DNA of 61,623 nucleotides, filler included, from Hausera hauseri (GCA_046269625.1; 12 parts of 12 records of this genome joined end to end with filler, not necessarily neighbours in it), one strand, 5' to 3'; positions 4,736 through 57,433 are shown, counted from the whole stretch's first letter. Program-made: numbers and translations. The notes: generated by a model not told the origin, from the sequence alone.

Positions 4736-4974
4736 TACATCTGCTGGACCAACGGCATTGGCAATGTAACCAAACGAATTAATCGCTGCTCGTCGAATGG
4801 ATTTTTTCGGAGATTTCAGAATTTCTATTAAATCAAAACATATACGCATCCATTTTCGAGATCTTACTTGGTCGTTGGCTTTTTCCGCAATAAAACTGAC
4901 GATATTAATACAATTTTCTTGGACTTTTTCATTCCGATTTTTTAAGATCGGCGTTAAACGAGGAAAAATTTCAT
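4736..4974 (-). pseudogene. SF3B1: SF3B1 HEAT-repeat fragment, in frame with the titin-like ORF and open to the contig end
   Basis: Translates [79 protein letters not shown]. This matches conserved SF3B1 [19 protein letters not shown]...WMRICFELL..LKAHKK.IRRA..NTFGYIAKAIGP.DV. Confidence 0.9.
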
Positions 4975-21166: not shown

Positions 21167-21790
21167 CGGAAGCTCGACCCGTTTTAATTTCGGTGCCAGA
21201 TATTCACTTCGAGTTTTCACATCGGATTTATCTTCTAACATTAGAAGACCTCTCATTTGTATCATTTTTATTATTTCTTCATTTTGCATCTCAATGTTAT
21301 TTAACTCCTCGATTAATTCTGCTAGTTCTTCTTTTTTCTTCAACTTCCTGGCGAGTAACTTAAAGGCGCTGATCTCCATAGATAATTTCTTAAAGGTTTC
21401 ATCGTATTTACTGTTTTGACGTTGAAACTCTTCTTCGGTTAATCGATTATTCATTAGTGATTTTCTCTGGACTATCAACTCATATCTTAGTCCATCTTTG
21501 GCTAACAATTGACTCTCGAAATCTTCGTTTTCGATTGTACTTCCTCCTTTCAGTCCACAATTGATATTTATTGTTGCCCCATGGGGAATTTTTTGTATCG
21601 TCTCATCACCGTTCCACTTTCTATTATTGTAGATAATTACAGAGTTATCTATCATCATGTGACACTTTTCTGATATTTTTGTTTTCAACAGAGCGACTGT
21701 TTCTATTCCGTCAACATCAACAACGATTAGTAGGTTTTGGTTTACTTTCACAATGATTTGTTTTAATTGTGGTTCTTCAGACTCTATTTT
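21167..21790 (-). mobile_element. Ubiquitin-like domain fused to LTR-retrotransposon Gag-like N-terminus (family 1, copy a), truncated at the contig end
   Basis: KQIIVKV...ETVALLKTKISEK...IIYNNRKWNGDETI...GATININCGLKGG (21763-21542) aligns with ubiquitin. A helical region and PKLKRVELP follow, homologous to 49378-50247. Confidence 0.75.
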
Positions 21791-22653
21791 TTATTCTTTA
21801 ATTCTATCCTTCTCTTTCCCATCATTTCGTTTATTTTATCCTCATTGTCTTTCTCATCATAATTTGTATTGTTGCCCAAATCCTTTCCCACTATTTTTGA
21901 ATGTTTCTGTATTTCAATTTTTGCATTTCTTAAGTTGATGTCTGATGTTTTTTGTTTTTCTCCCTTTGACCATTTAATAACTCTTTTTCTATCATCTTGA
22001 ACTGTTGTGACAATTCTTTGGGTATTGTTTTGAACTTCATTATTTGAGGATCTGTTTTTTAACTCATCCTTTACAGTTCCCACGGAACATTCTGCCCACG
22101 AATTTGATTCCATTTCATTAGTTTCATCAACAAAAATGAATTTTTATATAAGATGTCTATTTTAATGTTTTCTACAATTTCATTTAAAGACAAATTTTTT
22201 AGAAAGAACAAATTTATTCTTACGTTTGATTTAGTATAATTTAAAACAGCAATATAGAAGTTATATAACCTTCCCCTGTAAGTTTTAACGCAATAATTAT
22301 AAAAAAGGGATTTAAAGTAGGGAGTGGGAACGGCAGACAATGACATACATGACAATCCAAAATAACTGACCTTTGTTTTATTTGACATTGTTTTCTCCTC
22401 GGTTCTGTATTTTCTGATTCGATATTTAGACATGATGTCATCGATTCCGTTTCGAAATGGAATTTCCACCCGACTAAACAGGTATACTTCAGCTTTGTTC
22501 TCGTAACTTCTGTTCGTTTCAGCTAAAATGTTGATTAAAGCGAATTTTAGGGGGATTCGGAACCCCGTTACAATCAATAATTGTGGTTCTAAAGAGAACC
22601 GTTAACATTCTTAATTTGATCAACTGCTTTAGTTCTGACAACTATTCTTTCTT

Positions 22654-23560
22654 TTACAACTCAGCTTCTTCAGCTTTTCGACGTTGCAATTCTATTTTTA
22701 TCTGAATTTTACGCAATTTTTCTTTTTCCAATGTCACTTTTTCGGATTCAACAATGGATCCGATTTGAGTTACATGATTTTCAATCTCCGTTGAATGGTC
22801 GGATGCTGCAGCGTCTTCTTTTAACTTTTCCAACAAACTTTTGTAGTCACTTATTTGATTTGTTAGTATTTGTGACAACTTTTCGGATTGTGGCAGAGTC
22901 AACGTTTCATTTGTTTCACCCACAAATAATTCAACAAATTCCAATTTGAACTTTTGCGCATTCGATATCAATCGTGAAAATCGATCATTGATCATCAATT
23001 TTAAAGAATTAACGCCCAATTCAAGTGTACCGAACCGATTTCTTAGTACTTCACATTCTCTTTCGTTTAAAGTATCACATCGCTGTCCAACTCGAAGATT
23101 TAATTCATTCAGACAGAGAATCTTCTGTTCTATTTCATTCAATATCTCTTGTAAATTATCTTTCGAATTCATTTCATCATTGTTTATCTCTAAAGAATAA
23201 TCGTAATATTTACTATAAACGTCTTTATTCATGGCATCAATCCATTCTTCTACAGCACCTATATGGAACACAATTTTGTAAATGTCGTTTCTGATAGAAC
23301 TTTTCGTTTATTACTTAATGTTTCTAAAGATTTTTGGGTCATAAATAAACGTCTTTTCAATTCATGGATGGTTTCCAAACATTCGTCTAAAATTACTGCT
23401 ATGTCATCTTCCCACATTTGGCTTTCAATGACTGGTTCATTCTGTACATCAATTGCTGTTATAACTTTGGCAATCAATGGATATTCTACCATTTTTAATT
23501 TCATCTTTATGTAATCGTAATTCGTCGATATTCGAACAAGTTTTAAACGATTGTGCTGTA
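22654..23560 (-). pseudogene. Coiled-coil/helical host protein fragment(s), unidentified
   Basis: ORFs 22654-23271 and 23259-23504 are heptad-rich and in the same orientation as the neighbouring fragments. Confidence 0.35.
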
Positions 23561-23612
23561 GAGCTTCGTGTTTTCCTTTTACCAGTTCAACATGGGCATT
23601 GACAACTCGTTC

Positions 23613-23900
23613 TTATACATGTAGAGATTTACTAATATTTATAGTTTCTTTTAGACGTAAACCTTCGGTTTTTGCATCCTCCTGTTTTTTGCTACCAGCT
23701 AAATCTACCAATTGTAAATAACTCCTCATGATATTATCAACATTTTTGTCCTTATAACGTGTTTTCAGTGAAATTGTGAAGATTGCATGACTTCGAGAGT
23801 TTTTTCTATTCATTACCGTGTTTCCAATATGACGGTTCTTTAAGACGCGGTTTAATATATTTTCAGTCGCTGTCGGATTTTCAATAGTTACTTCAGTTAA
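23613..23900 (-). pseudogene. Kinesin motor fragment (KIF15/kinesin-12-like switch I and II)
   Basis: NRHIGNTVMNRKNSRSHAIFTI...LQLVDLAGSKKQ...GLRLKETINISKSL, with degenerate switch motifs. Confidence 0.8.
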
Positions 23901-23914
23901 TAGCACAATGACGA

Positions 23915-24505
23915 CCTCTTGATTAACTTCTTCCAATCTATCGATTAAACCAGGAGCAAAACTAATGCTCTCCGTATTGTCAAGAGAGCTGACAACCCAT
24001 CCAATATTTTTACATTGACCAGTCTGAACGTCTCCATGAACGCATGTATTACCTTTTCGGAGTTTGTTAACGTTGACAACGACATCAACTTTAGAAGTTT
24101 CGGTAACGTTCGTTGTAATCATATATGTAACTCTGTCACTTTTAAAGTCATTCAATGCTGATTCTCTCTGTTGTTGATCACAATCACTGTGGATCGTTGT
24201 TACCATAAAACCCAGGTAACTCAATTTTATATCCAAAAAGTCAAATAATCTTTTGTTTTCAACAAACACCAACGTTTTTTGATCGGGAATCTTTTTAACA
24301 TACTCTAATGCTCCATTTAACTTTTCTTTCGGCTCCACACAGATCACTTCTTGTTTAATATCACTGTCAACAAGTTCAATAATACAAATGGCTAAAATTA
24401 AACAGTTTTTCAACAAATTCCTTGCTAAATCTTGAATTGCTGTGGGAATAATAGCATTGAACATAAATATTTGATTAGTTCTATCATTACCAGCGAGATT
24501 GATTT
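23915..24505 (-). pseudogene. Vasa/DDX4-DDX3-like DEAD-box helicase C-terminal fragment
   Basis: QIFMFNAIIP.AIQDLA, KTLVFVENKR..DFL, TTIHSDCDQQQRESALNDFK and GQCKNIG are degenerate versions of motifs III-VI. Confidence 0.8.
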
Positions 24506-24549
24506 TCCCTCAAAATCTTTTTACTATTTCAAAAATTCCTTCAAAATCT

Positions 24550-24713
24550 AAAACGCGATGGGCTCCAAGTACACCATTCTTACTACATAAAGTAACATTT
24601 ATATCCTTTGGAATGTAAAATGTTAGTAACATTGGTATTGAAATTCCTACATTCACATACATCCCTTTTTTCAATTCAACGGCTGCTCGTCTGACTATTT
24701 TCTCTGTGATCAA
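24550..24713 (-). pseudogene. Succinyl-CoA:3-oxoacid CoA-transferase (SCOT/OXCT) B-domain fragment
   Basis: EKIVRRAAVELKKGMYVNVGISIP...VTLCSKNGVLG matches RAA.E..GMY.NLGIGIP...L.SENG.LG. The catalytic Glu has been lost (SKNG). Confidence 0.8.
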
Positions 24714-25084
24714 TTTATTGAGTTTTCTTTTCTTTTGTTTCTGCCGTTTTCTGAAATATCAAATTGTCAAATTTATGGACCTTCCATTTTTTTATGAGGG
24801 TGGTCATCAACAAGCTCCGATTCTAATAAATACTTTACTTCATTAAAATCTCGTATTGCTTTTGATTTGTAAGACAAAAGGAGTATTTCATCGTTTGAGA
24901 ACCCTTCAACAATTTTGTACGGCATTTTCAATTGTTGGGGTGATTTCGATATTTTATGTTCATCGGGAAAATCTGTTTTCCTCATTGAAAGTCGCAACCA
25001 TGGTTATATCAAAAAATCAAACAAATGATGATGAAAAGCTGCCGATGAAATTATTTGGTTAAGCTCATTTTAAATAAACATTTT

Positions 25085-25780
25085 GCTTACCAAATCATAA
25101 GTCACCGAATTGACTTTATTTCTTATCAGTTTCGTAACATTCATGATGTTATGGCCAATTGGAAAATCCATCTCTGAGAACCTTAGTTGAGTGCCGGTTA
25201 AATCCTCTTTCGTTGGGACGCCCAACTGAGTAAACCAACTTGGTCAAAGATCTATTTCAACATCAGCACGGAATGGAGCCCTTCTCATTACCATTTTGAC
25301 AAAAATACATCCGAGAGACCAAATGTCGACTTCGGAACCGTAATAGCCTGTTTTCAGCAACAACTCCGTTTTATGATAGTTAATTGTGACAACTTCCAGT
25401 AAGAGAGGAATAAATGTAATTGAGACTTTCCTTACGAGCTCAAATTTAGATAATTTTATTTTTCGCGTGTAATGGTGTATTAATATATTATGGGATTTGA
25501 CATCTCTTTGAATAACTCGACGGTGGTGGCAAAATGATACAGCTTGAAGGATTTGAAACATAAAACCCTTATGCAATATATCCGTCATTTCATATAGTTT
25601 AAGAAAAATATCCAGACTCATTTTCATATATTCCAAATTCATATAACGGTTAGAGTAGGTCAGTAGTACTTGATGAAAACTCACAATATTTGGATGTGGA
25701 AAATTTTCAAACAAACTAATTTCCATTAATATCGTAATTTCAGTTAAATTTTCTGGTTTAAATTTTTTAACAGCAGAAAA
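25085..25780 (-). pseudogene. Cyclin-dependent kinase (CDK1/2-like) fragment
   Basis: AVKK, HPNIV, FCHHRRVIQRDVKSHNILI, EVVTINYHKTELLL, VDIWSLGCIF, F.ADVEID and LGVP. HRD, DFG and APE motifs are degenerate. Confidence 0.85.
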
Positions 25781-38049: not shown

Positions 38050-38603
38050 AATCCGTAAAAAAAACAAGTCAGCTTTACTCTCACCTTTTGAAATTCGTTT
38101 GTAGTATGTTGGGTTCCTGAAACCGTGTATAGGAAAATGAAATGAGAAAGGTTAAGTAAAGTTTTTAGCTTCTCAACTATTCAAAGGAGGTTTTTTTATC
38201 GATTACTTAGGTGTTGATATTAGTAAAAGGAGTAGTGTAATTGCACATTATAAAAATGCAAAATTCCAAAAAGAGTTTTTCATCCAAAATAATAAAAATG
38301 GCTACAATTATTTACTCAAGTATTTGAATGACTTAGACCACCCACAACTCATTTTTGAATCTACAGGTATCTATTCAAGAAGTATGGAACGATTTTGTTG
38401 TGTAAATCAAATTAACTATATTCAAATGAATCCGTTAGAAGCCAAATTTAAAACGAGCGCTCTAAGATCATGGAAAACTGATCAGGCAGATGCTCATAAG
38501 CTTGCTTGTTTAGGACCGACGCTCAAACAAACAGGCAGCTTACCTATACATGAGTTAATATTCTTTGAATTAAGAGAACGTGCCCGTTTTCATCTAGAAA
38601 TCG
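38050..38603 (+). mobile_element. Bacterial IS110-family element 5' part (staphylococcal ISSep2-like): non-coding leader plus DEDD RuvC-like domain
   Basis: Shine-Dalgarno AAGGAGG at 38184-38190, then ATC at 38198. Translates IDYLGVDISK...LIFESTGIYS...MNPLEAK...KTDQADAHKLA. Truncated at about 38603. Confidence 0.85.
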
Positions 38604-40409: not shown

Positions 40410-40730
40410 AAGCATGGCTAGTCATGCTGCGAAGCGCAGGCCGACATGGTTCTCCATTTCTCGTAATACCTGGTGTCTCCAAACTTCTCTGCCGTTGACT
40501 TACTTCCGAGCGATTCTTGCAAACCATCCAGATATTTCATTCTTTGCCGTCCACTACTTCCTGGTTTTTGCCTGTGGTGACCAAGTTCTCCAGACCTTTT
40601 CTTAAAATATAACCAATCATAGATGGTTGTCTGTTTATGATCTTATTGATAAGGTTTCTTTCTGTGTCTGCTTCTTGTAAAACATCTTCATTTGTTCTCT
40701 ATGCTGTCCAAGGGATTTTCAACATTCTTC
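40410..40730 (-). mobile_element. RTE-clade LINE 3' remnant
   Basis: RMLKIPWTA*RTNEDVL.EA...R.LIN.I..RQ...GYILRKGLENLVTTGK...RMKYLDGL...WR.M. Confidence 0.75.
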
Positions 40731-40830
40731 NNNNNNNNNNNNNNNNNNNNNNNNNNNNNNNNNNNNNNNNNNNNTTAATTAATTAANNNNNNNNNNNNNN
40801 NNNNNNNNNNNNNNNNNNNNNNNNNNNNNN

Positions 40831-41565
40831 AGCACTTTATGGATCGATAGTGTTCCGGGTGCACTATCGATCGGCACATGTGCAATATCGATTTATCGAT
40901 CCAACCCTTCCGGGGGGTCTGTGCCCAAATCCCCATTTTCTCCCTACTTCCAGCCATCTCAGGACATGCTTAATTCTTTTAAATCTTCCACAATTGTTGA
41001 CGGCGTGGCTTTAGACACTTCCCAACCAAGTCATTCCGTAATAATTCGCGCGCCACCTTTACAACGGCAAGCGTTTAACAGTGTACATTCGCTACACCAC
41101 CTTGGAGCTAAGGCTACTTTTCGTTTACTCCGCCGACAGGTAATTTGGCCATCAATGCGTTCTTATGTGCAAGCGTGGGTTAAGGAATGTGTGGCTTGCC
41201 AGAAATTTAAAACCATAAAACATTTGAAGCCACCATTATATCATTTCCCTTGCACAACACGTTTCGAGTCCGTTCATGTTGATCTCGTTGGCCCTCTTCC
41301 TCCTGACAACGGTCATCAGTTCACTTTGACCATGATGGATTATTCCGCACGTTGGCCACACGCTGTCCTCCTACGAAGCACTAACACAGACACAATAGCC
41401 GACGTTTTCATACGCGCTTGGATAAGCAGATATAAATCCCCTAGATTAATAGGAGGAAAATTTGCTTTCGGTCCCACCTGGGGGGGCAGGGGTAATCGAT
41501 AAATCGATTTTGCACATGTGCCGATCGATAGTGCACAGTGTGCACTATCGATCCAAAAAGTACCT
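40831..41565. repeat. About 75-bp inverted repeat pair (40831-40912 and 41494-41565), rich in ATCGAT/GTGCAC palindromes; related direct repeats at about 41673-41770 and 42106-42200
   Basis: gcactatcgatcggcacatgtgcaatatcgatttatcgat is the near reverse complement of atcgataaatcgattttgcacatgtgccgatcgatagtgcac. Confidence 0.8.
40921..41432 (+). mobile_element. Ty3/Gypsy integrase fragment (HHCC plus start of core), flanked by inverted repeats
   Basis: HSLHHLGAKAT...WPSMR..V..WVKECVACQ.FK and RFESVHVDLVGPLP...DY..RWP.A...WISRY. Confidence 0.88.
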
Positions 41566-42249
41566 ACAATGGTGCCGCTAGGCGCCGTTGCTAAGGGCAC
41601 TCTCGCGCTTTTCACATATCGATCGCTGAACAGTGCAGTATTGATCGAATCGATAGGGGCAAAGTGCTAATCGATAGAGCACATCGAGGTGCATAGATTG
41701 GTGCACAGTGCAAGTGTGCAGCACATGTGAAAGTGTGCAAAAATCAATAATATTGGATTTTCGACATTTTAAAAATCGATCATGAGCACTCGGAACTGGG
41801 TGCAGTCGGTAGTGTACACGAAGTTTTATGTAAATGTGATGTTAGAATTTAAATCAATTGATTGGCTTTGAATGATTCGCAAGTGGGGCAGAACCGCCAT
41901 AGGCCTTTCAGCTATAAATTTTACATCAATGATATCAAAATGGCACATGTGCAGGCATGTGCAGTACTTGATGTAGTATCTATTAGTGCACAATTCGAGT
42001 GTGCTGTGTTTATTAATCGGTGTGCAGAAGCACTTTTTTACTTTACGCACTTTTGCCATTGTGCTGCGTAGGATTGATGGAATTGATCAAGTTCAAGTGC
42101 AGTTAGATAGAGCACATCGAGATGCACCTTGATGGGTGGTGTGCAGTGCAAAAACATGTGTGCAAGTATGCAAAAATCAATATTATCAAATTTCCGATAT
42201 TTCCAATAAGGATGATTAGCACCCGTGACAGGGCTCAATCGGAAGCAAT

Positions 42250-43176
42250 TTATAATGTAGTATATGAATGTGCAGTTCGAGGTGACAATGGACGTACCTT
42301 TTGACGAATAGGTCTTTGGTGTTGCGTTATGATGTGATGAAAAGTGCTGTTTGTAGGTGTGAATGTTCGGCCCTTCTGGATTAAGCGGGGGCATGAAGTG
42401 TGTATGTATTGCCGTAGACTTTCAGGCAATTGCGAGAGATTGGGTGATCGTGATGGTGTTGAGTCAATATGTGCAGTGACGAATGATGTTTGCGAGTTAT
42501 TGAAACCAAGGGAAATTTGATGTAGGATAGTAGTATTAAAAATAATGTTTGAAGAGGTAATTTTGTCTAGTGAATGTACCGAACCAACGCAATCGTAGTT
42601 GTAAAAACCAAATCTCAACTGAATATCGATATTATCATTAAAAAATTTACAAAATGAAAAATGCTTGTTGAAGAAGTTTGGATTACTTACAGGATTTTTG
42701 AGTATCGTCTTCCGTGGGAAGATTGTTTGCGTCTTAGTGGATATACTATTTATTCGCTCGGTAAGATATCCATTAGTGTTACTTTTCAGACATTGTTGTT
42801 TGCAATCAACAAAAAGATTATAATGGGGTAAGAAATCGGAACCTAGGATTGCTGTGCGGACGTTAGCGACGGTAAACGTCCAACGAATCGTTGAGTGAAA
42901 TTTTGGTAAAGTGAACGACAATTTAGATGTACCTAAAATGTCAAGCGGTTGTCCTGAAGCCGTAAATAACGATTTAGCTTTAAATGGTGAATTTTGTACA
43001 GGGAAAGTGAGTGGTAGCAAAGAAACCCCAGCGCCTGTGTCGATAAGGAAGTCTATGGATTGAGTTGTTGGTGTGGTTATCGAAGCCCTTAGTGTAAAGA
43101 CTGCAAAAGAAGTGTGTCGGCAGGTAGTATTAGAGAAGTTGCCTTTGCCAGACTCTGCCGTGAATACTGGCGGCAA
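42250..43176 (-). mobile_element. Ty3/Gypsy aspartic protease and pre-RT linker
   Basis: FLIDTGAGVSLLP, WTFTVANV..AILGSDFL.HYNL.VD and HHIIT...PI.QK.RPL. Confidence 0.88.
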
Positions 43177-43352
43177 AATTAGTTTTTTTGGATTGATGAG
43201 ATCGGCCGATTATTACTAGGGGAAATAGAACGTCTGTCGGTAGTATGGTTAGCGTTGTTCTTATAGTTGCAGCCTGAAAGGCATTTCTGAGCGTGGAATC
43301 CAAATTTCGTATGGTAGATGCAAACAATCTTGTCTGAATGTAAATTTGGAAT

Positions 43353-44302
43353 CTAATATCTACACCCTAAACAACATTTATTAGCTTTATTATGAAATTT
43401 GCTATGATAATAGCACACAAAGGATCGTGTAGGCGATGGTGACCTGTTTCTGGAAACAGAACGAGTATGATTATGAATAGGAACACTTCGTCGTGGTAAT
43501 GAAAGATCGTTCAACCTATTATTAATGTTATTTATTGTCTGTTGTAGTGCTAAATTTTCAGCGCGTAATTGGCTCAACTGTTGCTCTATTGTTGTATTGA
43601 GTTGATTGTCGCTTGTTGTGACCGCTGCTGATACAAATAATTGGGATTTCAATTGTAGCACTTCATGTGCTTTATCAACCAATTCCGCCAATTTATCCAA
43701 CGCCGTAGATTCCTCGACAACGGTAAGAAGTGCCCTAATTTGTATAGGCAACGCGTTTAAGAAATATCGTCGTAGAAGGTCTGAATTATGCTGCCTAGTT
43801 ACACCTAACGTTTAGAGGTGAGCCAACGACGTACGTGCTGAGGGATCAGTAATGTTGTTAGACTGCAGTCAAAGTTTGTGAAAGCTGAGCCATGTTTTGC
43901 TGGATTTTTCGTGATTTATAAAATATTCCGTGCACTGAGAAGAAGTGTGTTTGGCTGGCGGAATAGAAGATATATAACTGGTGAAAGTAGACGGCGTGGT
44001 TACGGTCGTTGATTTCTGGTGAAAGGCAAAATGTGATGGTTTAGAGGCCGTTTTGTCAGTGGTGTCAATGGTGAGTGAAGTGTCCATTCCACCACGTATG
44101 CGCGAATGTATATGGATAACGAGATATGGGGTCGAAGGAGAGAAAAAATTGCGCATATTGGCATTAACGAGTGGTAGAGTATTATTAGTTAAGTAAAGGT
44201 CTGAAAGAGCCATAAAATGTTGTATATATTTATATAAGTACAGTGAGTCTATATGGTATGTTATATCGTGCGTCAGTATTTATTATTTAATAAAAAATAA
44301 AA
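43353..44302 (-). mobile_element. Ty3/Gypsy gag with N-terminal ubiquitin-like domain (family 2, copy a), decayed
   Basis: FYFLLNN/ILTHDITYHIDSLYLYKYIQHFMALSDLYLT...LVIHIHSRIRGG|MDTS (44302-44088). Gag motifs KTWLSF...ITDP, FLNALPIQIRALL...LDKLAELVDK and the knuckle CYYHSKFHNKANKC. Confidence 0.8.
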
Positions 44303-44899
44303 CGAAAGGGGTGTCACAGGCCCTATTGAGTGGTGTGGCGATGGAAAAACCCGAGGTGTGGGACCAATTGGCATTGGACGCACTGTTAAGTAGTTGGTTA
44401 CGCTGTGATGTACTCGGAACTCAAGAGTATTTTTGCACACATGGCCAAAAATCTGAATCATCGAAGTAAATGGGCTGTAAGAAACAACCGCAACGGAGGG
44501 CGAAGTTTAAAAGGGGTGATGTTGTGTTGACGGCGGACATGTTGAGAACAAAAACATAAGAGAAAAACGGGAAAAGGGGATGGTTAATAAGAAGTAAATT
44601 AAAAAAATGGTTGCCTGACAAATAGAACGCAATGACAAATCTCACTTCGTCGTGCGCTGGTTTCTCCGCGGATGGCAGTATCGTTTTGCACTGTGGGCAC
44701 TGTAGATCGACTTTCTCACGTCGTGTCATCCTACGAGCGATCTTCGTACTCAACCACTCTGAACAAACCCACCGGTTCGTTATATATCGTCTGGTTTTCA
44801 TCGAATCTTGTCTGCTTGGCACCTTTTCACAGACGTCTGTAATCGATCTTTTTATACGCTTCACTCTGCAGTCTAATACTGATAAACTCACTATTTGAC

Positions 44900-45350
44900 A
44901 GCAGTTTTTGTTTATGTTGCAGCAGCTGCATGTACGGCGGAAAAGAAGTTGTACTCGATGTTGGTATATGATTAGCGTTCATTTTCTTAATTTTTTCCGT
45001 CTGGGAATAATCTTCACCAATGTACTTCTTGTCAATAGTGGACCAAAAATTAAAACGACTGCCTTCTTCGACTTGTGACCAATTCAGGCGCAAGACTGAG
45101 ACACTGTGAGACATGTGTTTGCGAAATTCCGTTGCTACAATATGGACGAGTTCATCTTCGGTAATATCTGCAAATCCTTTATTCGAATAGACTTTGTGTG
45201 ATTTAATCAAATCGGTAACCGCTCGAAATTTAAATCTGTGTAACACATTGGTTATATTTGAATGTTTAGTTTTGACAACAAGATCGTTGACAATTTCCAT
45301 CTCAATTTTGTTATCTCTGAGGAACTGTTTAAAGAAATCTTTTTGGTGTA
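44900..45350 (-). pseudogene. PRIM2: DNA primase large subunit fragment
   Basis: F.AV.DLI..HKVY..KGFA.I...ELV.IV..EFR..MS and Y.GEDYS...SFPPYM.LL. The Fe-S Cys of SFPPCM is replaced. Confidence 0.8.
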
Positions 45351-45359
45351 GAAAAGCAA

Positions 45360-47242
45360 TATTTAAACAAATCAACTTTTTGGTTAATAAACCAACAACT
45401 TAATTCGTCAGTACGAGAATGGATAGTAACAAAATAAAATTGTATTAAATGTCATTATGAACATTACTGCTATTGGTGTTCGTTTCATTTGCTCCATAAA
45501 AATATGGTTTAGAAGTGAAATTGATTGAAAGTTTGGTAAAGGCTTCCAAACGAGGAACTCCATCGTTGTACACAGAAATATTCAACGTCAAATCAGTCAA
45601 TTTAATGTTAAAAAACATTTGTATAAGAATGAGATTGCCGCTGAATATTTCCACAGAAAGTATTGATTGAAATTATTGAGTTTAAAATGCAGCTTTGAAT
45701 TAATACCGATATCACAATTCATGGCTGATATTTGAGCTATTCGTAAACCAGTATGGAAGTCCTTATTAATCTCGACTGACAAGGAATCGGGTGATGGAAA
45801 GATAAATTCTGGCACACAATCATTGACGTCTTCAATTATGATCGTCATATGATAGAGTCTAGATAGTTGAGGTTTTCTGTCATCTTTCCCTATGGCACAT
45901 ATTTTGTATTCGTCCTTCAGTTCTCGGTCGAAAGAATTTATTGTCCACAGATGCATGGAATCAAGAGAAAAATACCCATGAGTGTTCAACAAACTGATAT
46001 GCGATTTACTGTCAGTTTCTTCATCGGCATCAACGAACTTAAACTGAAATATGTTATTGCATTTCTTTGTATTTTCCGGAATGGCAATTTTCCCATCAAT
46101 AAGCTTAACTATTTCTGGAGCATTGGCGTTCAAATTTATAACATTTACGGTAAAATATACGAAAGATGATTTTGGAATTAGCGACAAATCAAACACTTGG
46201 ATTTTAAGAAAATACAGTTTGTTTTCTTGGTAATCCAACGGTTTCTTTATGAACAGTTCACCAGATGTGGAAATGAGAAAGGACGTATCACTATGACTAT
46301 TGTTTACTACAGATAATTCCAGCTGATCGTTTTCCTTAATATCTGGATCAATCGCTTGAAAGTAAAACACGGGATCGTGATAAATGGTGTTCTCTTCGAT
46401 AGAAATGGACTAGAAATTCTTCACGTTTACAAATTCCGGAGTGTGATAGTTTTCATCTTGAGCCAATACGAGTATTTTGGCCGTAGCAGAAAGCGAGACC
46501 AGACCGTTATCGTGGCAATGAAGAAAAATACTGTAGAATGTCTTTTTCTCCCGATCTAATGAGAGCAGAGTGGTGATTTTGAACGTGTCGTAGGCATATT
46601 AGCGAAAAAGGAACGATAATTTGAAAGGCGAAATGGTGTCATCGGTGGAAATGTTATAGGATATTACTGAATTTTGGTCTTTATCTTGATCTTCAATGGT
46701 GAACATTGTTAACAGATTATTCAGTGGTCTGTTTTCGGACATGAAATAAACAGAATCGACATTAATATTTGGGACATTATCATTTATATCTAATATATAA
46801 ATATCCATTGTCAGTGTGTTGCTTTTGACTGGGATTCACAGTCTTTAACATTAATTATTAAACAAAAATGATCGATCTTTTCTCGGTCTAATTCCGATTT
46901 TACTTGAATATCTCCAGTTTGATCATCAATCGAAAAGTATTCTGTTTTGTCTTTGGCATTTTCTTGAAGAAAAAATGTCAGTATATTGTTCTTTCCTTTG
47001 TCTAAGTCGAGAGACTGTACTTTGAATATGATTTGGGCGATACTGGTATTTTCGGCTAAATATATATTTTCATATTGAGTGATTGACATTGTAATTGGTT
47101 TCATAATGAACGACAACTTGTCTATAAATCCAATAGTTAACATATTTTTTCGTACGGACTTCTGACACCATTGTTGTTTCCCAGTGAAGGCAGGAATTTT
47201 AAATAATTCCATTACGACAGATAGCAAAATCCAAAAGAGCAT
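45360..47242 (-). pseudogene. Protocadherin/cadherin-repeat membrane protein, decayed and internally deleted
   Basis: Signal peptide at 47242. Cadherin motifs DLDKGKN, LDRE, DINDNVP, AIDPD, PLDY and DVNDCVPEF. Hydrophobic TM-like segment near 45440-45370. Confidence 0.82.
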
Positions 47243-48619
47243 ACAAATTTATATATATTTCTGACTTAAAAATTTTAAATATATAATCTATATACACAAG
47301 TTGATATATATTAATTTAATTGTCACTATGTTTTGTCATAGCAGTTCCATGAATAAAANNNNNNNNNNNNNNNNNNNNNNNNNNNNNNNNNNNNNNNNNN
47401 NNTTAATTAATTAANNNNNNNNNNNNNNNNNNNNNNNNNNNNNNNNNNNNNNNNNNNNAAGAACCGTAATATTAGTACAACATCTGATATAAACTAACAC
47501 TTTCTGATACACGCGTTCTATCATAATTTGAGTCATGATCTCCAATCTGACATCAAAGTTTATGAAGTCAATTCCTCTGTCAACGTAACACTAATAATTA
47601 AGTGTTTTCTGATTGCCTTTTGTCCTTTTTCCTTTTCTTTTTCATTTCCCGGGAATGTCTGAAATTATCTATTAATTGACTGGTTCTCGATAACTCAAGG
47701 AAAGAACATATAAACTTATACCTATTCAATCTTTTCCCATTTCTATTATGCACTTCCATATGTGTGATTTTCTTAAATGAAAAATAACGCAATACTTGCG
47801 AAATGAAATAATGCATTTGGGACGAAATCGTTTCTTGTATTTTCAGAAGCATTTTTCCGGCGAAATTTTTGTCATTTTCCGGAGAGATTTCATACACATA
47901 TCCTTTGGAATTTCTTACATCATTATAAACGATTCCTTATTTGATTTCTTCCATAATAGCGTAAAATCGCCATATTGTCGATTTGGTACAACACAGCATT
48001 TTATGAACAGTACGTTCAAAATTTTAATTTCAATATTCCAATTTTATCAATTCAATTTTAGTGATTAAATTCACTATAGTATCTTTAAATGTGTACTTGA
48101 ATATTTTGTCATTTGTATCGTGTCAGTTAAACTGTTTAAAAGAAGGTTTCGAATTTGTTGATAACTTGAATAAAAGTTTGAATTCTGATGAAGTAATAAG
48201 TAAAATAAGTTCGGATAGACAGCAATCGAAAATGGGCGAAATGTCGTCAACTGATTTTAAACCATCAGCATATGTCTGTAAAAGACTAGGATAATGATGA
48301 GAATTTTCCTTTTTATTATTGATGTAGTATATGTTATAGAATTTGACATATATGAGTCGATATATTTTCTATACATACTCTTTAATTAAAAGAATGCGAC
48401 CACCAAACGAATAGATGAATTAAAACCGATTTAAAATTTTCCAAAGTTCCAAGGCGTTGGCTAAGCTAGACAAGCTAACACACTGTGAAGCTGACGTCAT
48501 GATAATAATAACGCATAAAATACTCTCGTTATTTTTGATTTTGTTGAAAACAGATTTTTTAACGTTCTTTGTGTACAATTGAAACTTGCTGTTTTCAGCA
48601 CATCTTTTTTCGATATTTT

Positions 48620-49066
48620 AATATTCCCGTTATTTTGTACACAATTGCAGTTTGCTGTCTTTATATATCTTTTGCCATCTGATTGAAATTTGAAATGGAA
48701 ACGATATTAATTACTTTCAATGAGTTGTCACATGAGTTGTTCACATTATAACAAGGATCTTTAGTAATCTTGACTTTGGTTGCAAAGACGAACTCTATTG
48801 TTTCCGTTATCTTGAATACAATTGTAGTCTTCTGTTTAACATATTTGCTATTTTGATACCATTTCAATATTTTGCGAGCAATTACGGTTTGTTGTTTGGA
48901 TATTAACATCTGTTATTTATCGTCAACTTTTTCTTGATTTTAAATGCGGTATCTAATATTCATTTATCAGATTTGGATTTAACAAATTTGTAATGCTCCT
49001 TTCATATCGCCTGGTCACCGTCATAATTCCCCCGTCCCCGCAAATGCCGCCAGGAGTTGTTTGCAT
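48620..49066 (-). repeat. Deleted/rearranged duplicate of the LRR-gene segment at 52170-53333
   Basis: Shared blocks: 48622-48658 with 52172-52207, 48906-48982 with 52215-52293, and 48982-49066 with 53250-53333. Confidence 0.75.
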
Positions 49067-49258
49067 TCACAATTATTTTAGCACATTTCATTTTTATATC
49101 ATACATTCAACAAATCCAACCTTCAACAACCCGATTTTTGATGCAAACAGCACAACCAAACATGCACACGTATTTACACTCATACATACACACACCTATA
49201 TATTTATATATTATATACACTATATACATTTTTTATATCCACCTATACATCTCCCGTT
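49066..49258 (-). mobile_element. Possible polypurine tract and 3' LTR start
   Basis: The minus strand reads aacgggaga|TGT at 49249, just after an RHAGRRVLEPDRL pol-tail-like peptide. No matching second LTR was found. Confidence 0.3.
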
Positions 49259-49377
49259 GAAGTTCGACCGGATTCCCCAACTAAACGGTCGGGTTCCAAC
49301 ACCCTTCTTCCTGCATGTCGAAATTTTCTGTCAACCTTTTCTTCTGACCATATAGGCACCTTTCTAACTGTAGTTGT

Positions 49378-50247
49378 TTACATATGGTAGACATTAACGT
49401 TTTGTCCACACGTGTCGAATGTTCTTCTCCATCGATCATATTCAGAGATCGCTCCACCAAATTTTGGCGACTCCAGTCTTTGCAGCTTCGGCAAAATTAC
49501 TTTTTCTTTCATTTCGTCATTCGCGGTCTTTTTTGTTACGTTGACCACAGTTTTATTCTCTCTGAGACTCCGTTCATAAATAATCCTGTTAATCTTCTCA
49601 TTTTGTTCGTCTAATTTCTCCATCTCGTTCTCCAGTAATGTTACGCTCTTTTTCTTTTTCAGCTTTCTAGCTGCGGTGGTCAATAAGCACGATTCTTCCC
49701 GAACATTTGAGAAGATCTTTTCATAACTTTGATAAAATACACCATAGTCGTACTCACTCAAATTCACGTCCATCAGTCTCCTTCTAATTAATGCTAACTC
49801 GTTTATGGGTCCCCGACGTTCGGCGATACGTTCTTCAAGTTCGTCTACGGTTAGTTCACTTCCTTCTTTTAGTCGGAATATTACGTGTATTGCTGATCCA
49901 TGCTTTAGATTCCTCACCTCATCGTCTGTGCGCAATGGTTTTCCGACATATAGTATTCTGAATTCCCAGTTGATCCTTAGGTTCTCCTTTACGTGGTCGA
50001 TTAGAGCGCAGTAAGATTGTAATTTAATTAATCCTGTCACGTAGTGGCGTTCGCTACAATATATAATTATTTGTTTTCCCTTTTGTTCCACTGTAAAGAC
50101 CGAACTTTCCACCATAATACTATCGTCTGATTTTCTTATATTATTTTGCTCCATCGTGACACCCTTCCTAGGATTTCTCAACTTGTCTTTCCTTCTATTC
50201 TCCTCGGTTGACCGTTCCTCAATACCGTTTAGATTTTTAAGATTCAT
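49378..50247 (-). mobile_element. Ubiquitin-like domain plus Gag-like protein (family 1, copy b)
   Basis: KQIIIY...LIDHVKENLRI..EFRILYVGKPLRTDDEVRNLKHGSAIHVIFRLKEG (50076-49861). Then a helical region (ARKLKKK, QNE.I) and LPKLQRLESPKFGGAISEYDRWRRTFD, a Gag P.F.G....W motif as in BEL/Pao DUF1759-type Gag. Confidence 0.78.
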
Positions 50248-52149
50248 TCATTTTTGCACTTTACTCCTTGTTCCCCCAAACAAGTTTCTTATAAACATTT
50301 CATTATTCTTCACATTTGGTTTATTACGTCTTTTGGTCCTTTTGACGCAACCAGATGTATGATCTTCTTCCGTATTACTAATAGATAAGGCTTTTAATTT
50401 TCCCAAGGGCGTCACCATTGCCTCGCCTTCAAAGTTGCACGATTTCCATCCACCGACTTTTGTGGCAACTTTTACGGGCTTGGCACGGATTCTCGCTCCA
50501 TACATACCATAACGGAAGAAAAGTAGGCCAACATCGAGGAGAAAGACATACAGACCTCGAAAGACGATTGCTTCACGTGGTTTGTGTCTGCGGATCACGG
50601 TACAGAGCACAAACCACGCTCTGCTACCATATGGAAATTTTATACGAAATTGACACAGTAAATTCGTCATGTAGTTATATGCATCTCCTTTGAAGTGAAA
50701 GTCCAATTTATTTCCGACATAAACCCCCGGTACAACCTTCACCATTCCTTTCCTGGGCCCATATAATTTTTCTCTTGGAGTGTATACTTCCTCATCTCCA
50801 CTCAAAGGCTCTTGAATCATAGACTTCACCGATTTTGTAACTAACTTATATTGAATTTCCACCACCATCACTAAACCGACCCAATCATTATTAATTTCAT
50901 TACCATAAACATTCGCACACTTTACACATAAGAAATATATAATAGTACTATTGTGGTATATTCGAGAATTATTATTACACAATCGCATATTATTTATGCA
51001 CAATATGTTTATTATGATCTTTCTTTCGTCACTAGGTTCTTTATTCCTCATTTTGTTATTGACTCCAGATCCCATAATATCCGATTCATGAACTTTCCTC
51101 AACCTCCAAATTCCTTTAATCAATATATAGCCATATAAAAAACATTTATGTTAATGTAACAGACAAACCCAGCCATTGTTCTCGCGGTGCCGCTCCGCGG
51201 GGGAATATCTCCACCGTTAAGTATAAGTACTAATGCGAACACTCTGATTTTAACATTCATTCTAATGCTACAATTCCCGGCGACAATCATGGAGACGAAA
51301 AAACAATAACAATTAACAACTGTAATATTGACACAACACTTGACTACCTTAACAATCAGCATTCCCTGTTCCACATATTTCGTTGGACCTTTCATTATAA
51401 CATCAATTTCTTCATTAAGTAATTTCAATGATATATACTCATCTGTTAACGTATTTACAACGACTAAGCATCTCCTAATTGTCTTTCGATCGCTCTCCTT
51501 TATACCTGTATTCTTCAGGAGATATCTAAAGACATTTATCATTGTATTAAACTCCAACGTTTTAACGACATAACGAATAAAATGATACCGACACGATTTT
51601 TCTATGATTTCATCATCTACATCCATACATATAATTTCTTTGACTTGAAAATAATTCAGCATTTGCGATTTGAAATAAAGCGATTGGGACAATTTTATCT
51701 GACATTTCTTTTGAGCCTTTTTCCCGTTGCTTTTTTCCAATTCCTTTAAAGAGATTTTATGAGCGTGATCCTTGAATTCTATCCTATGAATAGACCAATA
51801 ATTTTCATGAATCCGTCTCCTGTACGGTATATAATTTGACTTCATTTAAATGTGCTGGTTTAGAATTTTCTGATCAGCAACGTTTAAAATTAAATTAAAT
51901 TCATTCATCAATTATAGTGATTCAATATCACTATGTATATTATCATTATATAATTATATTGAATATATATACCAATATCTTTTATATATATCTCACGTTG
52001 ATTAAATAAACTTTATTTTACTTGCTAAATTTAATTTTGAAATGAAAGTATCCATGAATGTTGAACTACTTTCAACAATTTTTATAATAGCAAAGGGGTT
52101 TTACGATTTGGCCTTATTCCTATGAAATTTGATAAGCTGAATTTGGTTT

Positions 52150-53197
52150 ATAAAGACAGACTTCTGAATATTCTTTCGTTATTTTGTATACAATTGTGGT
52201 TTGCTGTTTTACTGACATCTGTTATTGATCGTCAACTTTTCTTTCTTGATTTTGGATGGAGCCTCTAATATTCCTTTATCGGATTCGAGTTTAATTTCAA
52301 GAAGTAGTTTATTTGCCTGTTCTTGGCGTTTAACCATTTGCATATCACGGGCATCATCTCGCCATTCTGATACAGTATTTATCTTTAATGCTTTGTAATT
52401 TGATTTCTCTCTTCTTTCACTTTTTTAATTTTAGCTAATCACATTTGCTCATTTATTTTCTGTTCGATGGTTTCCAACGAAATTGGTTCTCGATAAAGGG
52501 TGACAAATTCGCTATGTTTATCCGACTGTGTCATGATTGGTCTTTTATGACAAAGACTTGACGAACGAGACTTATGGAGATACGAATTGTGAATGTCATG
52601 GTAAATCTTTGGTTTGTGAACCTTTTCGGACTGCTTTCGTTGTAAAACAGTATTATTTTCATTCAAATAAAAATCTTCTTGCGGTGTATCACCTGAAAAC
52701 AACCGATCCCTATCAGCAATAAATTACCACAACTAACCCATCGGCTTATCTACTCTATTTAATTCTTTTAAAATTGCTCGATAGCCTTGAGCAAGAACGT
52801 CGGGAGCAGGAGTAACAATTGGATTTGACCCCACATTTAGTCCTTACAGACTTTTAAGTAAGCTCAATTCGAATGGTAATTCCGATGTTATTTCCATCAA
52901 TAAGTAACACTTCCAAATTGACTAAATTCCGAATGTCTCGTGGAATAAACTGAGTCTCATTAAATCATATATCCAAAAATTGTAATTTTGGAAAGGCAAC
53001 GAAAATTTCATTTGGAATTACCTCAAATAATTATTATTAAGATAGCAATATTCAGTAAATGTTGCTTCGTAAATTTCTATGGCTAATTCTTTTAAGCCCA
53101 AATCACTAAAATTAAATGATTTGTCTTTCGAATATAACATATTCAATATCCTCTCTTCAGCTCGTATACTTACATTATTTTCTATATCGTTCGCCAT
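52150..53197 (-). pseudogene. Leucine-rich-repeat protein, decayed
   Basis: FNFSDLGLKEL, YLNNNYL, FPKLQFLDI*FN and IP.DI.NLVNLEVLLIDGNNI, with stops and frameshifts. Confidence 0.7.
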
Positions 53198-53443
53198 AAT
53201 AAACAGTTTTGTTACTCTATATAATTCTTCTACATTGTGATTTGTTTTAACAAATTTCTAATGCTCCTTTCATATCTCCTGGTAATCGTCATCGCTCCCC
53301 CGTCCCCGTGAACGCCGCCAGGAGTTGTTTGCAATCATATTTANNNNNNNNNNNNNNNNNNNNNNNNNNNNNNNNNNNNNNNNNNNNTTAATTAATTAAN
53401 NNNNNNNNNNNNNNNNNNNNNNNNNNNNNNNNNNNNNNNNNNN

Positions 53444-53565
53444 TATTTTATTTATTATAATGATTTTATGTAAGTAATCAATTGTTGGTTAGAAATATAT
53501 ACTTAGTTAGCGTTTATTTCCGCTTATTATGGAATTATTGTACAAACAACATTGGTGTCAGAAGT
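53444..53565 (+). promoter_or_regulatory. LTR 3' end (…CAACA, 53551) followed by a Ty3/Gypsy-type primer-binding site TGGTGTCAGAAGT (53553-53565)
   Basis: Canonical CA-n-TGG junction. TGGTGTCAGAAGT is complementary to a tRNA 3' end (Leu-type) and is a common Gypsy PBS. Confidence 0.65.
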
Positions 53566-53634
53566 CTAAAGATATTTTGCAATTTTCTAAAAGTTCCGAA
53601 ACCATTAATGAATCCAGTGTCATGTATATGCATT

Positions 53635-54480
53635 TAAATCAGGAATTAGAATGATATTATAATGGAAATTTTGCTGTTTTACATCGTTTTTCGTCTCAGG
53701 ATAAAAATTTAATTTTTAGTTGTTCTACTGGTTCTGACATTAAATGTGTGGCATTTACTTCCATGTCAAACAAACTCTGTTCAAATGCTTCTTTGGACAT
53801 TATATTTGATAATGAAGCATCGAATTTGTCTACGGGAATTGTTTTATTTACAGATAATATTGCGAAATATTATGGATTTAACGGTGAAACTCATGGTTGT
53901 AAACTTCCTTGTCGAGTAAGTAACGCTTGGAAAATGATGAATTGCTTGTTAATCGAACGAGAGGAATATCAGTTATTTACGGATATGTCGCCACATTCGT
54001 TGTTTTTAATGACCCACATAATGTCAGAATTTACATCTGTCGTTTTCCGCGATGAAAATGGTTACAGAGGATTTGTAAATAATACTCGTTTTCGAATAAT
54101 GCCTGTTTGTAAAAAACAGCAGTTGATAATCGGCTATAATAAATCGGACAACTCGTTTTCTTTGTGGCGCTTGAGAGATACAGTGAAAGAAGACTATTCG
54201 AATCATTATAATCAACATTGGGATGGGTCTATTACTACTAAAGCAGCGAAATTACAATTACGTTCTGTCAATATGGATTCAATGTCTCAGATTGACCGGC
54301 AATCTGGTGATTAGTTTACGAATATGACTTTGCTAGCTAATGTTAGCAAAACAAACCGTTCGATTGATGATTTAGATATGCGAAGTCCTCTTGTTCGATC
54401 ATTAAGGTCCACTTTGGGTGTTAACGATTCGGGAACGATGACTCATCGGCAATCGTTAGACATAGCGGCATCGAAACAGA
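53635..54480 (+). pseudogene. ANAPC1: Anaphase-promoting complex subunit 1 N-terminal fragment
   Basis: LPCRVSNAW....LLIER, LF.M.H...EFT.V and IIGYN......SLWRLR resemble the APC1 WD40 region (LPF.V..VW...GLL.ER; H.L.E..P; SVW.LR). Confidence 0.6.
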
Positions 54481-54529
54481 AATTCCATATTTATTAATTT
54501 AAAATTCTAAAATCTCTCGCTTTACATAT

Positions 54530-55130
54530 CCATGGGGCTGACGTAGCTAAAATTCAACTTTATAATACTTCGGTACCGTGTCATGGATATAAAATCGAGC
54601 TTATTCCCGGTGATCCCGTTAGAAAAGCCTTTGAAGGAACGTTAGGTGATGTAGTAAATTCTCAATTTCAACAGCAAATTAATGCCACTCTTCAACACGG
54701 AAAACCATATCAAAATGTGCCGTTAATTAACACAAATAATCATCCTTTATCTTGTCCCAATGGAAATTTTCATTCTGCAAACTGTTATAGACGTCTCTAC
54801 TTTCAATTATTAAAAATTCCAATTCATGAAGTCGAAGATAAGCAACAGTTTTGCTGCGCTTTTGTTGACATTCATGTTCAAGAACAAATGGAAATTATAG
54901 TAACTTTGCATAAAACTGGAAGTGCATCAGATTTATTAGCAGAGGCTAAACGTCAAGCAAGATTAACAAATATAAATTCTTATTTCTATCGACTCTTCGA
55001 GGTTGTTAATCACAGAATCATCAGTCTTATTCCACTGAAACGGAAAATATAAGAGTTGGAACCGAATGCCAATCGAATTCTGCAAATTGAAGCAATTCTC
55101 CCTGGCGAAGAAAAAATAAATCCCAAACAA
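54530..55130 (+). pseudogene. USP7: USP7 C-terminal UBL-region fragment (non-catalytic)
   Basis: PGDPVRKAFEGTLGD, RRLYFQLLKIPI.E.E.K..F.C, K.G...DLL.EAK, RLFEVVNHRII and RIL.IE.I. Confidence 0.75.
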
Positions 55131-56361
55131 ATTGTCTTACTGTCTGTAGACTCATCACTTAAAAGTACTATAAATGTTACACGTACCCAACGGACCAACA
55201 ACATCAATATTACCAGTAATTTACCCCCTCTTTCACAATCATCAATTCTACAGTCTGAATCAACAATAAAGCTTATATCTCCTGTATATACTTCTAATAC
55301 TCAGATCAATATTAACAAACTTCCACTCTTGCATCTCGATAATACTATTCATATCGAATCTATACGGAAGAATAAACCCTCTAAATTTCTTAATTTAAAA
55401 GATTCCATCAGTCAGATAGGTTCATCAGCAACCTTTGTGGAGAAACACGACGGGGTAAGACCGGTAGTATTGTATTATTCTCTCGTGAAATATTTTTTTA
55501 ATATATATTTCATTAACAATACCCTCCATCTATTTCCCTCATTTATTATCGTTCATGTCATTGCTGGCACAGCATTGTCTCCTGAAACTTATGCTCACCA
55601 TTATAGGGTTACTCCCTTCAAATATGATTTTATCTATGATTGCCGATTTACTTTCACGTTTGAGCATTCATTCCTATGGGGAATTGAGATTCACGTTTCA
55701 TCAGGCTCTGATAAGTATTTTAGTAATTTCGAAAGATAATTTAACGATAATCGGCTCATCGCAAACCTATTTTAATCAATATTCTGGAGGTTTGCCCACG
55801 ATAGGTTGTACGATTCATTTGGAATTTGTAAACGGCGTATTTAGTTTAAAAAGGCTACATAAATTACTATTGCCGGCAATCATGTCGGCTTTGTTATTTA
55901 CATACGAGACTTCATATGGGACCACCTACATTGTTATACCAATGTTCTTTATAACGTTGAATGGCAAGGTTATTAATTTCGGCCGCTACTACTATATTTA
56001 TATGGCGATGTTGATCATTCCCCACACGAATACCATCATTTATTACGCCAGAATAGAAGGAGTTATTGTTGACAAAATTTTATTTATTGCATTTACTGTT
56101 AGCTACTTCAATTTTATTGAGTTTGTCAACAAACCGTTTTGGCAGTATCACATTTTCTCTTTGTTTTTCATAATCCAGTTCGATTGCTGCAACCTGGAAA
56201 TTTTGAAATACATTTGGTACCTAGCGCAAGCGTTTGTCGGCGATACACGTTAACTACTATTTCGACATGACTCCTGACGCCCCGGGAATTCTAATACATT
56301 TCAACAAAACATTTCTTTTTTTCTTGCTCAGATCATAATTTCTGTTTATTTAATTCAACCG

Positions 56362-57433
56362 TTGTTTTACTTTATTATTTGCCCACATCATCGTTTTTCG
56401 AGACACATTGCACTCGAAAGAATACAGGAACTTGATGACGGTCCAATAGAAATTAATGAAGTGGTTCAGTCATTTCACACTCTTGAGTTACAAACAAACT
56501 ATAGCATGATCAGCCACTCAACTTTCTATTTTGAGTCAACAAATCCATGGTGTGTTCTATCACCACTCCAACCACTTGAGTTTGCACCAACTATTTATTT
56601 TTATTTCTTTTTAAATAATCAACATGTACTAACACATGGAATGACAAATTCGATAGATGCATCCTACCTACATAACTACACGCTACACGCAGTAAATATC
56701 TTTGATTTTTATCTAACGTACAAGAATACGGCAATAACTAACGCCAACTTTCACAGTCTTTTTGTGCATTCAAACCATTGTATTGTCATTCACATACATA
56801 TTCGCATGCGTGGGGCGATGGATTCTTCTTCCACCGTCGATACTAGTAATAAAAATACTCAAAAAATACCACATTTTCCTTTTCATCAAAAACCATTGAC
56901 CATAAACATACCATCTTCTTTTAGTAGTTATGCTCCTACAATCTCGCCAGTCAAAAACACTTCTCAGTGTACCGAGTACTTTATTGACCACGAACAGTCT
57001 AACAAAACGTGGCTTAGCTTCCACAAACTGGTTGCAATCTAACAATATCACTGATCCGTAACCAAGGCCCATAATCTGCTTTGCCTTTTACCAACAACTG
57101 TAAAATCGGCCATTTACGATTTGCTCGATATCTTCCAGAAACCTGATCCATACACGCATCTTTACAACGCTGTTTTGAAACTTACGGAACCATCTATGGA
57201 CTCAATAATTCACCATTTCTTCAACGACAATGCCATGAGGGAGCAGAAACCATCTGATTTTCTCAGAACGTCACTCGTGCAACTTCAAACACTTGGCGTG
57301 ACGAAACAACATAACGCCGATCTTTTGCGACATTACTTCCTGAATGCATTGCCCACACAAATTAGGGCCTTACTTACTGTCGTTGAAGAATCGACAACAT
57401 TAGATAAATTAGCCGAACTGGCGGACAAAACAT
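56362..57433 (+). mobile_element. Ty3/Gypsy gag with N-terminal ubiquitin-like domain (family 2, copy b), truncated at the contig end
   Basis: IYFYFFLNNQHVLTHGMTNSIDASYLHNYTLHAVNIFDFYLTYKN...IVIHIHIRMRGA|MDSS (56593-56817). Gag motifs KTWLSF/ITDP, PDPY..L..A, KPSDFLR and FLNALP.QIRALL..LDKLAELADK. Confidence 0.82.

Follow-up and report, generated by a model that had tools for sequence, protein, structure and literature searches.

Ubiquitin-like (Ubl) domains that end in Gly-Gly (GG) and are fused directly to a product that a host protease sets free are well known from UBA52, RPS27A and FAU. The maturation of Gag in long terminal repeat (LTR) elements is normally credited to the element's own protease. 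The present analysis concerns four LTR-retrotransposon copies in a stretch of DNA from Hausera hauseri (GCA_046269625.1), hereafter the window, which is made up of 12 contigs joined with spacers and is 61,623 nt long, filler included. In each copy a domain that is ubiquitin-derived or probably ubiquitin-like stands upstream of Gag and in frame with it. A related device is described for bovine viral diarrhea virus (BVDV) CP Rit, in which a host fragment and a ubiquitin without its first three residues are cut by host hydrolases, according to the available part of the source (PMC8310069). The ubiquitin-Gag fusions found in the searched literature are engineered only, e.g., in the part of PMC3914991 that was available, and the ubiquitination of human immunodeficiency virus 1 (HIV-1) Gag is the subject of PMC3751857, also available in part. 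The Belpaoviridae profile of the International Committee on Taxonomy of Viruses contains no ubiquitin domain; the region that follows the 5' LTR is given there as non-coding, the LTRs as 0.2-1.2 kb long and the primers as Arg/Gly (PMC8742986). The word 'ubiquitin' is absent from the main texts of PMC3118150, PMC12440569, PMC8321522 and PMC5131818, and no natural ubiquitin-Gag element was found in the searched literature, with Repbase, Dfam, subscription journals and supplements outside its scope. This agrees with the original prediction, to which a Ubl on the Gag of an LTR element was not known as a described feature; Repbase Reports may contain an earlier mention, because Repbase lay outside the search. 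We regard Ubl-Gag as real and lineage-wide, a variation on known LTR elements that has apparently not been described before and seems to borrow a known viral processing device.

Our analysis located the Ubl-Gag loci on contigs 5, 9, 10 and 11, one on each, just where four gag-like genes with an in-frame domain and distinctive tail motifs had been predicted. The junction motifs, GLKGG/S, RIRGG/M, RLKEG/S and RMRGA/M respectively (the slash marks the putative cut), were confirmed, and each continues in frame into the Gag that follows. Two pairs can be told apart among the copies, namely contigs 5 and 10 (loci 21167-21790 and 49378-50247; 25% identity), referred to as family 1, and contigs 9 and 11 (loci 43353-44302 and 56362-57433; 53% identity), referred to as family 2. 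No Gag similarity was found between the pairs, as had also been claimed, and the two Gags are now assigned to different superfamilies. All four copies are broken or truncated by stops, frame breaks or a contig end. In contig 5, Gag is cut by the contig end and a stop stands directly before the Ubl domain; in contig 10 the capsid is broken early and pol is absent; the contig 9 copy has a frame break inside the domain in addition to stops and a deletion, and the contig 11 copy has two stops and runs into the contig end.

We consider it fairly probable that host deubiquitinases (DUBs) would cut after the GG, so that Gag would be set free with a constant, small residue at its N-terminus irrespective of the leader translated before it. 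Across both families, GG is found at 8 of 10 junctions, and the following residue is invariably Ser, Gly or Met (10/10) and never Pro. In family 1, including public relatives designated here by P numbers, GG is present at six of the seven visible junctions (P0001 included), followed by Ser in six, with the EG copy counted, and by Gly in one. Four relatives are identical to canonical ubiquitin at 60, 54, 43 and 31 of 76 positions, the last one lacking the first residues. Among the six aligned family 1 domains Leu73 and Gly76 are kept in all, Gly75 in five and Lys48 in four, while Ile67 (5/6) and Gly64 (4/6) are common non-canonical residues. In the Gag bodies of family 1 GG accounts for 15 of 2014 dipeptides. 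The series from 60/76 down to about 25% ubiquitin identity, with GG kept, represents a natural test set for DUB substrate drift.

The exception in family 1 is the EG copy of contig 10, whose closest relative, P0001 (60% identity), reads KLKGG/S. In run X1, compared over 49700-50900 with 447 records, at least 11 contigs, amounting to a depth of 67.7 of 82.9, carry a Gly codon at the Glu position; since X1 may be the window's own sample, these are to be taken as sister copies and not as an independent host. In run X2 the Ubl has no coverage. In family 2, GG/M is seen in two of three sequences (RIRGG in contig 9 and RLLGG in the public protein P0152), while contig 11 has RMRGA. P0152 was not selected for GG, because it was found with a capsid-only query. 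The proposed check of GG conservation was borne out at 8 of 10 junctions, with mostly Gly in the sister contigs at the contig 10 Glu.

From sequence comparison, family 1 combines a domain derived from ubiquitin with a BEL/Pao Gag that follows it in one fusion. In contig 5 the domain (21542..21763, minus strand) ends in LKGG, carries Lys at the position of ubiquitin Met1 and is preceded by the stop that closes its frame (21791-21793, minus strand); the N-terminal helical region of Gag follows (21167..21541, minus strand), with the contig end falling at the start of DUF1759. In contig 10 the domain (49861..50085, minus strand) ends in LKEG and is followed by the N-terminal part of Gag (49378..49860, minus strand), which is broken early in DUF1759, with no pol after it. 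Against Pfam ubiquitin the two domains gave E-values of 0.011 and 0.035, both under the gathering score, while their sequence matches in the PDB are to ubiquitin or NEDD8 (58 of the 60 rows shown, and 12 of 12). With a profile of 146 non-redundant Ubl domains they scored 32.3 and 14.1 bits, and the highest score reached when the window's 1381 open reading frames (ORFs) were all shuffled 30 times was 12.1 bits; the contig 10 match spans the second half of the domain only.

A family 1 profile was searched against 1.84 billion representative proteins, of which 175 passed. Among the best 150 of these 175, six extend into Gag and most cover the ubiquitin part alone. A Pfam scan, run on 21 of the 150, revealed DUF1759 in all six Gag-reaching relatives. 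P0003, P0011, P0029 and P0048 combine Pfam ubiquitin (E 4e-11 to 4e-28) and DUF1759 in one protein, while P0001 starts in the final Ubl residues and P0002 downstream of the junction. The contig 5 Gag is 64% identical to P0002 (DUF1759 E 7.6e-20) and the contig 10 Gag 60% identical to P0001; the window copies themselves end at the start of DUF1759, so their membership is read from these two relatives. Pol is missing from both window copies, and P0001 and P0048 have only a weak protease match in Pfam. The predicted in-frame fusion of Ubl and Gag is accordingly seen in whole public proteins for both families, these being proteins and not full-length elements. P0001 also carries, in frame, CCCH fingers (residues 400-454) and a C-terminal CFAP58 host fragment (residues 920-993). 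No relatives of either family alignment were recovered from the IMG/VR scans, and in the IMG/VR scan with P0003 the best 80 loci match the ubiquitin region only. Two JGI metagenome scans gave no relatives, the ESM Atlas no usable match, and word-based protein searches with single window ORFs no matches. In an 8-row Gag tree two of five branches are well supported, and the order of ubiquitin decay is not resolved by the tree.

In family 2, the contig 9 domain (44088..44310, minus strand) ends in RIRGG, has a frame break in the first hairpin and probably adopts a beta-grasp fold; it is followed by the linker and a Ty3/Gypsy-type Gag with stops and an internal deletion (43353..44087, minus strand) and then by a retropepsin-type protease frame (42253..43209, minus strand; HTLV protease E 5e-4). 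The contig 11 domain (56593..56817, plus strand), of 75 residues, ends in RMRGA, and the linker and a DUF7041-type capsid (56818..57433, plus strand) contain two stops and reach the contig end. The capsid-only query yielded among 314 candidates one longer relative, P0152, 57% identical to the contig 11 copy. This protein consists of a leader of about 100 residues, a domain of about 75 residues ending in RLLGG/M, a Pro/Ser linker and a DUF7041-type capsid. The DUF7041 matches (E 0.012 for P0152, and 0.09) are both under the cut-off; the Gag is clearly unlike the DUF1759 Gag and is probably of the Ty3/Gypsy type. Because a Ser/Thr/Pro-rich linker of about 52 residues intervenes between GG/M and the capsid, the family 2 domain is not adjacent to the Gag body, contrary to what had been predicted for all four loci. 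No reverse transcriptase was seen in view of the family 2 copies. On the strand opposite the contig 9 Gag lies an integrase fragment (40831-41502), flanked by a 67-base inverted repeat of 90% identity (40834-40900 and 41495-41561).

The family 2 domain itself had no match in Pfam, PDB phmmer, the Ubl profile or the Atlas, and a profile-profile match is confined to its last 10 residues. The P0152 and contig 9 domains align better than 1000 of 1000 shuffles, while the same shuffle test detected no alignment of the P0152 and contig 11 domains. Between contigs 9 and 11 the domain shows proportions of nonsynonymous (pN) and synonymous (pS) differences of 0.34 and 0.74, with 45 differences at third codon positions versus 26 and 23 at the first two. 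It thus evolved as a protein, under purifying selection; the capsid is far more constrained (pN 0.06-0.11). The whole P0152 domain was modelled from a three-sequence alignment with both window copies, with no ubiquitin and no templates. The model has strands at 3-8, 11-17, 40-44, 47-49 and 67-71 and a helix at 24-34, i.e., beta-beta-alpha-beta-beta-beta order. In Foldseek, 46 of the 46 rows listed are ubiquitin or Ubl entries, with TM of about 0.55-0.64 in all but one listed row, and the top rows in VIA are SUMO1, the midnolin Ubl, a ubiquitin variant and ISG15. A ubiquitin-like beta-grasp fold is therefore probable for family 2. Of the beta-grasp folds expected by the original prediction, that of family 1 is clear, its sequence being derived from ubiquitin, and that of family 2 stands as probable on a low-confidence model. 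The idea of a decayed capsid duplicate was rejected, since 85 to 884 of 1000 shuffles scored equally in four of five tests; in the fifth 27 of 1000 did, at an unrelated place.

The Ubl domains are internal to longer frames. In family 1 the ubiquitin Met1 is replaced in four of the five domains with the position visible. In contig 10 a 300-codon leader (50251..51150, minus strand) lies in the Ubl-Gag frame, with one stop between; from its start inside the upstream LTR-like region, the leader extends across the LTR end as well as the primer-binding site. The upstream LTR-like region spans at least 2.7 kb (50632..53343, minus strand) and contains two blocks, about 950 bases apart, that are contiguous in the downstream copy. 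The primer-binding site (50612..50629, minus strand), two bases past the CA of the LTR end and about 545 bases before the Ubl domain, lies where contig depth is very high and resembles that of an initiator Met tRNA primer. No second instance was found in the window within 3 mismatches, and contigs 5, 9 and 11 yielded neither a primer site nor an LTR end. A purine tract, a TG start and the downstream LTR-like copy are found at 47459..49258 (minus strand). The two LTR-like copies are 68-86% identical in their three longest blocks, and the downstream one is therefore not a young twin. Between 51150 and the domain, the 430 codons of the contig 10 frame include one stop and 13 Met codons in frame; six of these Met codons come after the primer site, so translation could begin inside the LTR but need not do so. 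In contig 11 a frame of 443 codons, domain included, extends up to the junction with two stops. Both contig 10 LTR-like regions also share an unannotated frame of up to 241 codons (51123-51845 and 47601-47936, minus strand), 32% identical over 79 residues.

Fragments of host genes were detected by Pfam upstream of three of the elements, each on the Gag strand: a CDK-like kinase, a CoA-transferase, a helicase and a kinesin in contig 5 (23616..25804, minus strand), where the helicase and kinesin pieces lie in one frame; a primase large subunit and cadherin in contig 9 (44830..47248, minus strand); and the C-terminal part of USP7 in contig 11 (54498..55049, plus strand). The scan covered 95 of 97 flanking ORFs at E 1e-4, with two left out, and seven of the 95 matched (kinase, CoA-transferase, helicase plus kinesin, primase, two cadherin frames and USP7). 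All seven lie on the Gag strand, in three contigs; strand agreement alone is weak evidence because the contigs, and not the ORFs, are the independent units. In P0029 an HSP90 fragment (E 1e-11) stands in frame before ubiquitin.

Several of our observations speak against release of Gag by DUBs. Recognition by canonical DUBs is uncertain, because the family 1 domains of the window are identical to ubiquitin at 21 and 18 of 76 positions and Leu8, Val70 and Arg72/74 are often changed in them; the DUB-contact surface is strongly eroded in the window copies. In family 2, sequence similarity to ubiquitin is found in the last 10-12 residues only, and Met follows the junction in three of three sequences and could be Gag's own start. 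A first model of this domain, built without strand 1, was unsuccessful, with a predicted local distance difference test (pLDDT) of 33, and the model of the P0152 domain is of low confidence (pLDDT 52), its best Foldseek match having E 0.018 and TM 0.64 and its best VIA match Z 7.3 with a root-mean-square deviation of 2.6 over 72 aligned residues. Stops interrupt the leader in contigs 5, 10 and 11, so read-through from the LTR in an intact element stays hypothetical. Each Gag-reaching family 1 relative is a single-contig ENA or JGI record, and P0152 is likewise a single-contig record. Finally, the family 1 search profile contained GG and may favour GG-bearing matches, and the comparison of sister contigs covers the EG copy and leaves out the GA copy of contig 11.

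An unlikely alternative holds that the Ubl is retained, or slowly cut, and acts as a folding aid or as a degron limiting Gag levels, as in ubiquitin fusion degradation. Uncleaved N-terminal or internal ubiquitin is a degron according to the available part of PMC9703124, and both the eroded DUB-contact surface and the retention of Lys48 in four of six domains are consistent with such a role. It would have no need for GG, yet 8 of 10 junctions retain GG in domains that have otherwise drifted. Cleavage after GG by a protease other than a DUB, either Ubl-specific and of host origin or encoded by the element, would apply chiefly to the highly diverged domains, and we consider it improbable. The family 2 model is equally near SUMO1, the midnolin Ubl, ISG15, Fubi and ubiquitin (Z 6.4-7.3, tied), which would suit such an enzyme; against it, family 1 relatives reach 60/76 ubiquitin identity with LRLRGG intact, and the sole protease seen in the elements is retropepsin-type.

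It is more doubtful still that, in family 2, the Met following GG is the start of Gag, the domain being a separate or occasionally read leader and the true fusion being limited to family 1. The Met in three of three sequences and the ubiquitin similarity limited to the tail would accord with this, but none of the three has a stop between the domain and the linker or the beginning of Gag, the P0152 frame stays open from a Met lying about 100 residues further upstream, and the domain is under purifying selection. We see very little likelihood that the Ubl itself, released or retained, is the functional product, as a decoy of ubiquitin receptors or a signal recruiting the endosomal sorting complexes required for transport. 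Cleavage-resistant ubiquitin on HIV-1 Gag restores release (PMC9703124) and ubiquitination-related domains are present in Burro elements (PMC6431247), as far as the available parts of these sources go, but the residues of the hydrophobic patch are less conserved than the C-terminal LxGG and env was not seen in these copies. That ubiquitin has no role, being a passively captured piece of host mRNA or the product of chimeric assembly, is already largely refuted and hardly probable: these elements capture many host fragments, LTR-mediated capture is known from the available part of PMC5131818, and every relative is a single contig, but the junction register is the same across Gags only 21-37% identical to the contig 5 copy, Ile67 and Gly64 are common to most family 1 domains, and the family 2 domain is under purifying selection.

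If host DUBs do release Gag, translation would begin upstream, at an AUG located either within the LTR or in the 5' internal region, and the ribosome would read the variable leader, then the Ubl and then Gag. A host DUB would remove the leader together with the Ubl, and a Gag beginning with Ser, Gly or Met would assemble, capsid production being independent of whatever the element captures upstream. Such a step before Gag would make the elements depend on the host in a new way and might offer the host a means of controlling them, and it would explain how the host-gene scraps at the 5' ends could change without loss of capsid production. More tentatively, it is possible that two LTR superfamilies in one host lineage independently adopted the ubiquitin cut site as an insulator, with LTR-internal translation through exchangeable host cargo, release of the cargo peptide and a precise Gag, and capsid maturation dependent on host DUBs. 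The data fit transfer of a single module between the families as well as convergent capture.

Other features of the window were also recorded. Fn3 and Ig repeats make up a titin-like open frame of 1615 codons (125-4974, minus strand), possibly another host-gene mosaic, in which the first ~80 residues resemble SF3B1. The titin-like and cadherin pieces suggest an animal source. Contig 2 contains a fragment of a Monjiviricetes-type viral fusion glycoprotein (7765-8274, plus strand; Pfam E 1.3e-8). The frames at 27095-30336 (plus strand) have no Pfam match and resemble a Polinton/adintovirus-like element, with an integrase end and capsid-like genes. In contig 8 (38156-39587) a bacterial-type IS110 transposase fragment (plus strand) overlaps the end of a cytochrome P450 frame (minus strand), pointing to a chimera or contamination. 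The contigs at 9216-16277 and 16378-21066 are GC-richer and may derive from other organisms in the sample; we take them to encode an SRCR-like repeat protein and a WD40 protein.

With regard to known systems, family 1 resembles BEL/Pao elements in having a DUF1759 Gag followed by a protease in relatives and, in contig 10 only, an LTR, a primer site and a purine tract. It departs from the Belpaoviridae profile in that a Ubl precedes Gag, a frame extends across the LTR end, the LTR-like regions measure at least 1.8 kb and the primer site is apparently another one. The giant planarian gypsy elements Burro/GYPSM1 likewise encode an LTR-retrotransposon polyprotein that includes a Ubi2/SUMO-like domain along with domains captured from the host, but there Gag occupies the N-terminus, the Ubl follows further downstream, flanked by MATH and BCL2 domains, and no GG site or processing role is mentioned in the available part of the source (PMC6431247); in all sequences here the Ubl precedes Gag. 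As in UBA52, RPS27A and FAU, a Ubl-GG is fused before a product (PMC9703124, available in part), but those are host genes starting with the Ubl's own Met, whereas here the Ubl is internal and part of mobile elements. Sense-strand mosaics of several host mRNAs with LTR elements are also a feature of LTR-mediated retroposition, in which the captured pieces lie between LTR segments as retrocopies and no insulating cut site is described in the part of the source available (Tan et al., 2016; PMC5131818). Cytopathic pestiviruses share with these elements a host-derived ubiquitin without its N-terminal residue(s), with other host sequence before it, in frame and ending at the N-terminus of the next protein (PMC8310069, available in part). 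The pestivirus insertion is, from the same material, recent and near-intact, occurs in single strains of an RNA virus and releases NS3, with cleavage shown (PMC8310069), whereas in these elements, for which we infer cleavage, a fixed, lineage-wide and strongly diverged domain precedes a retrotransposon capsid protein.

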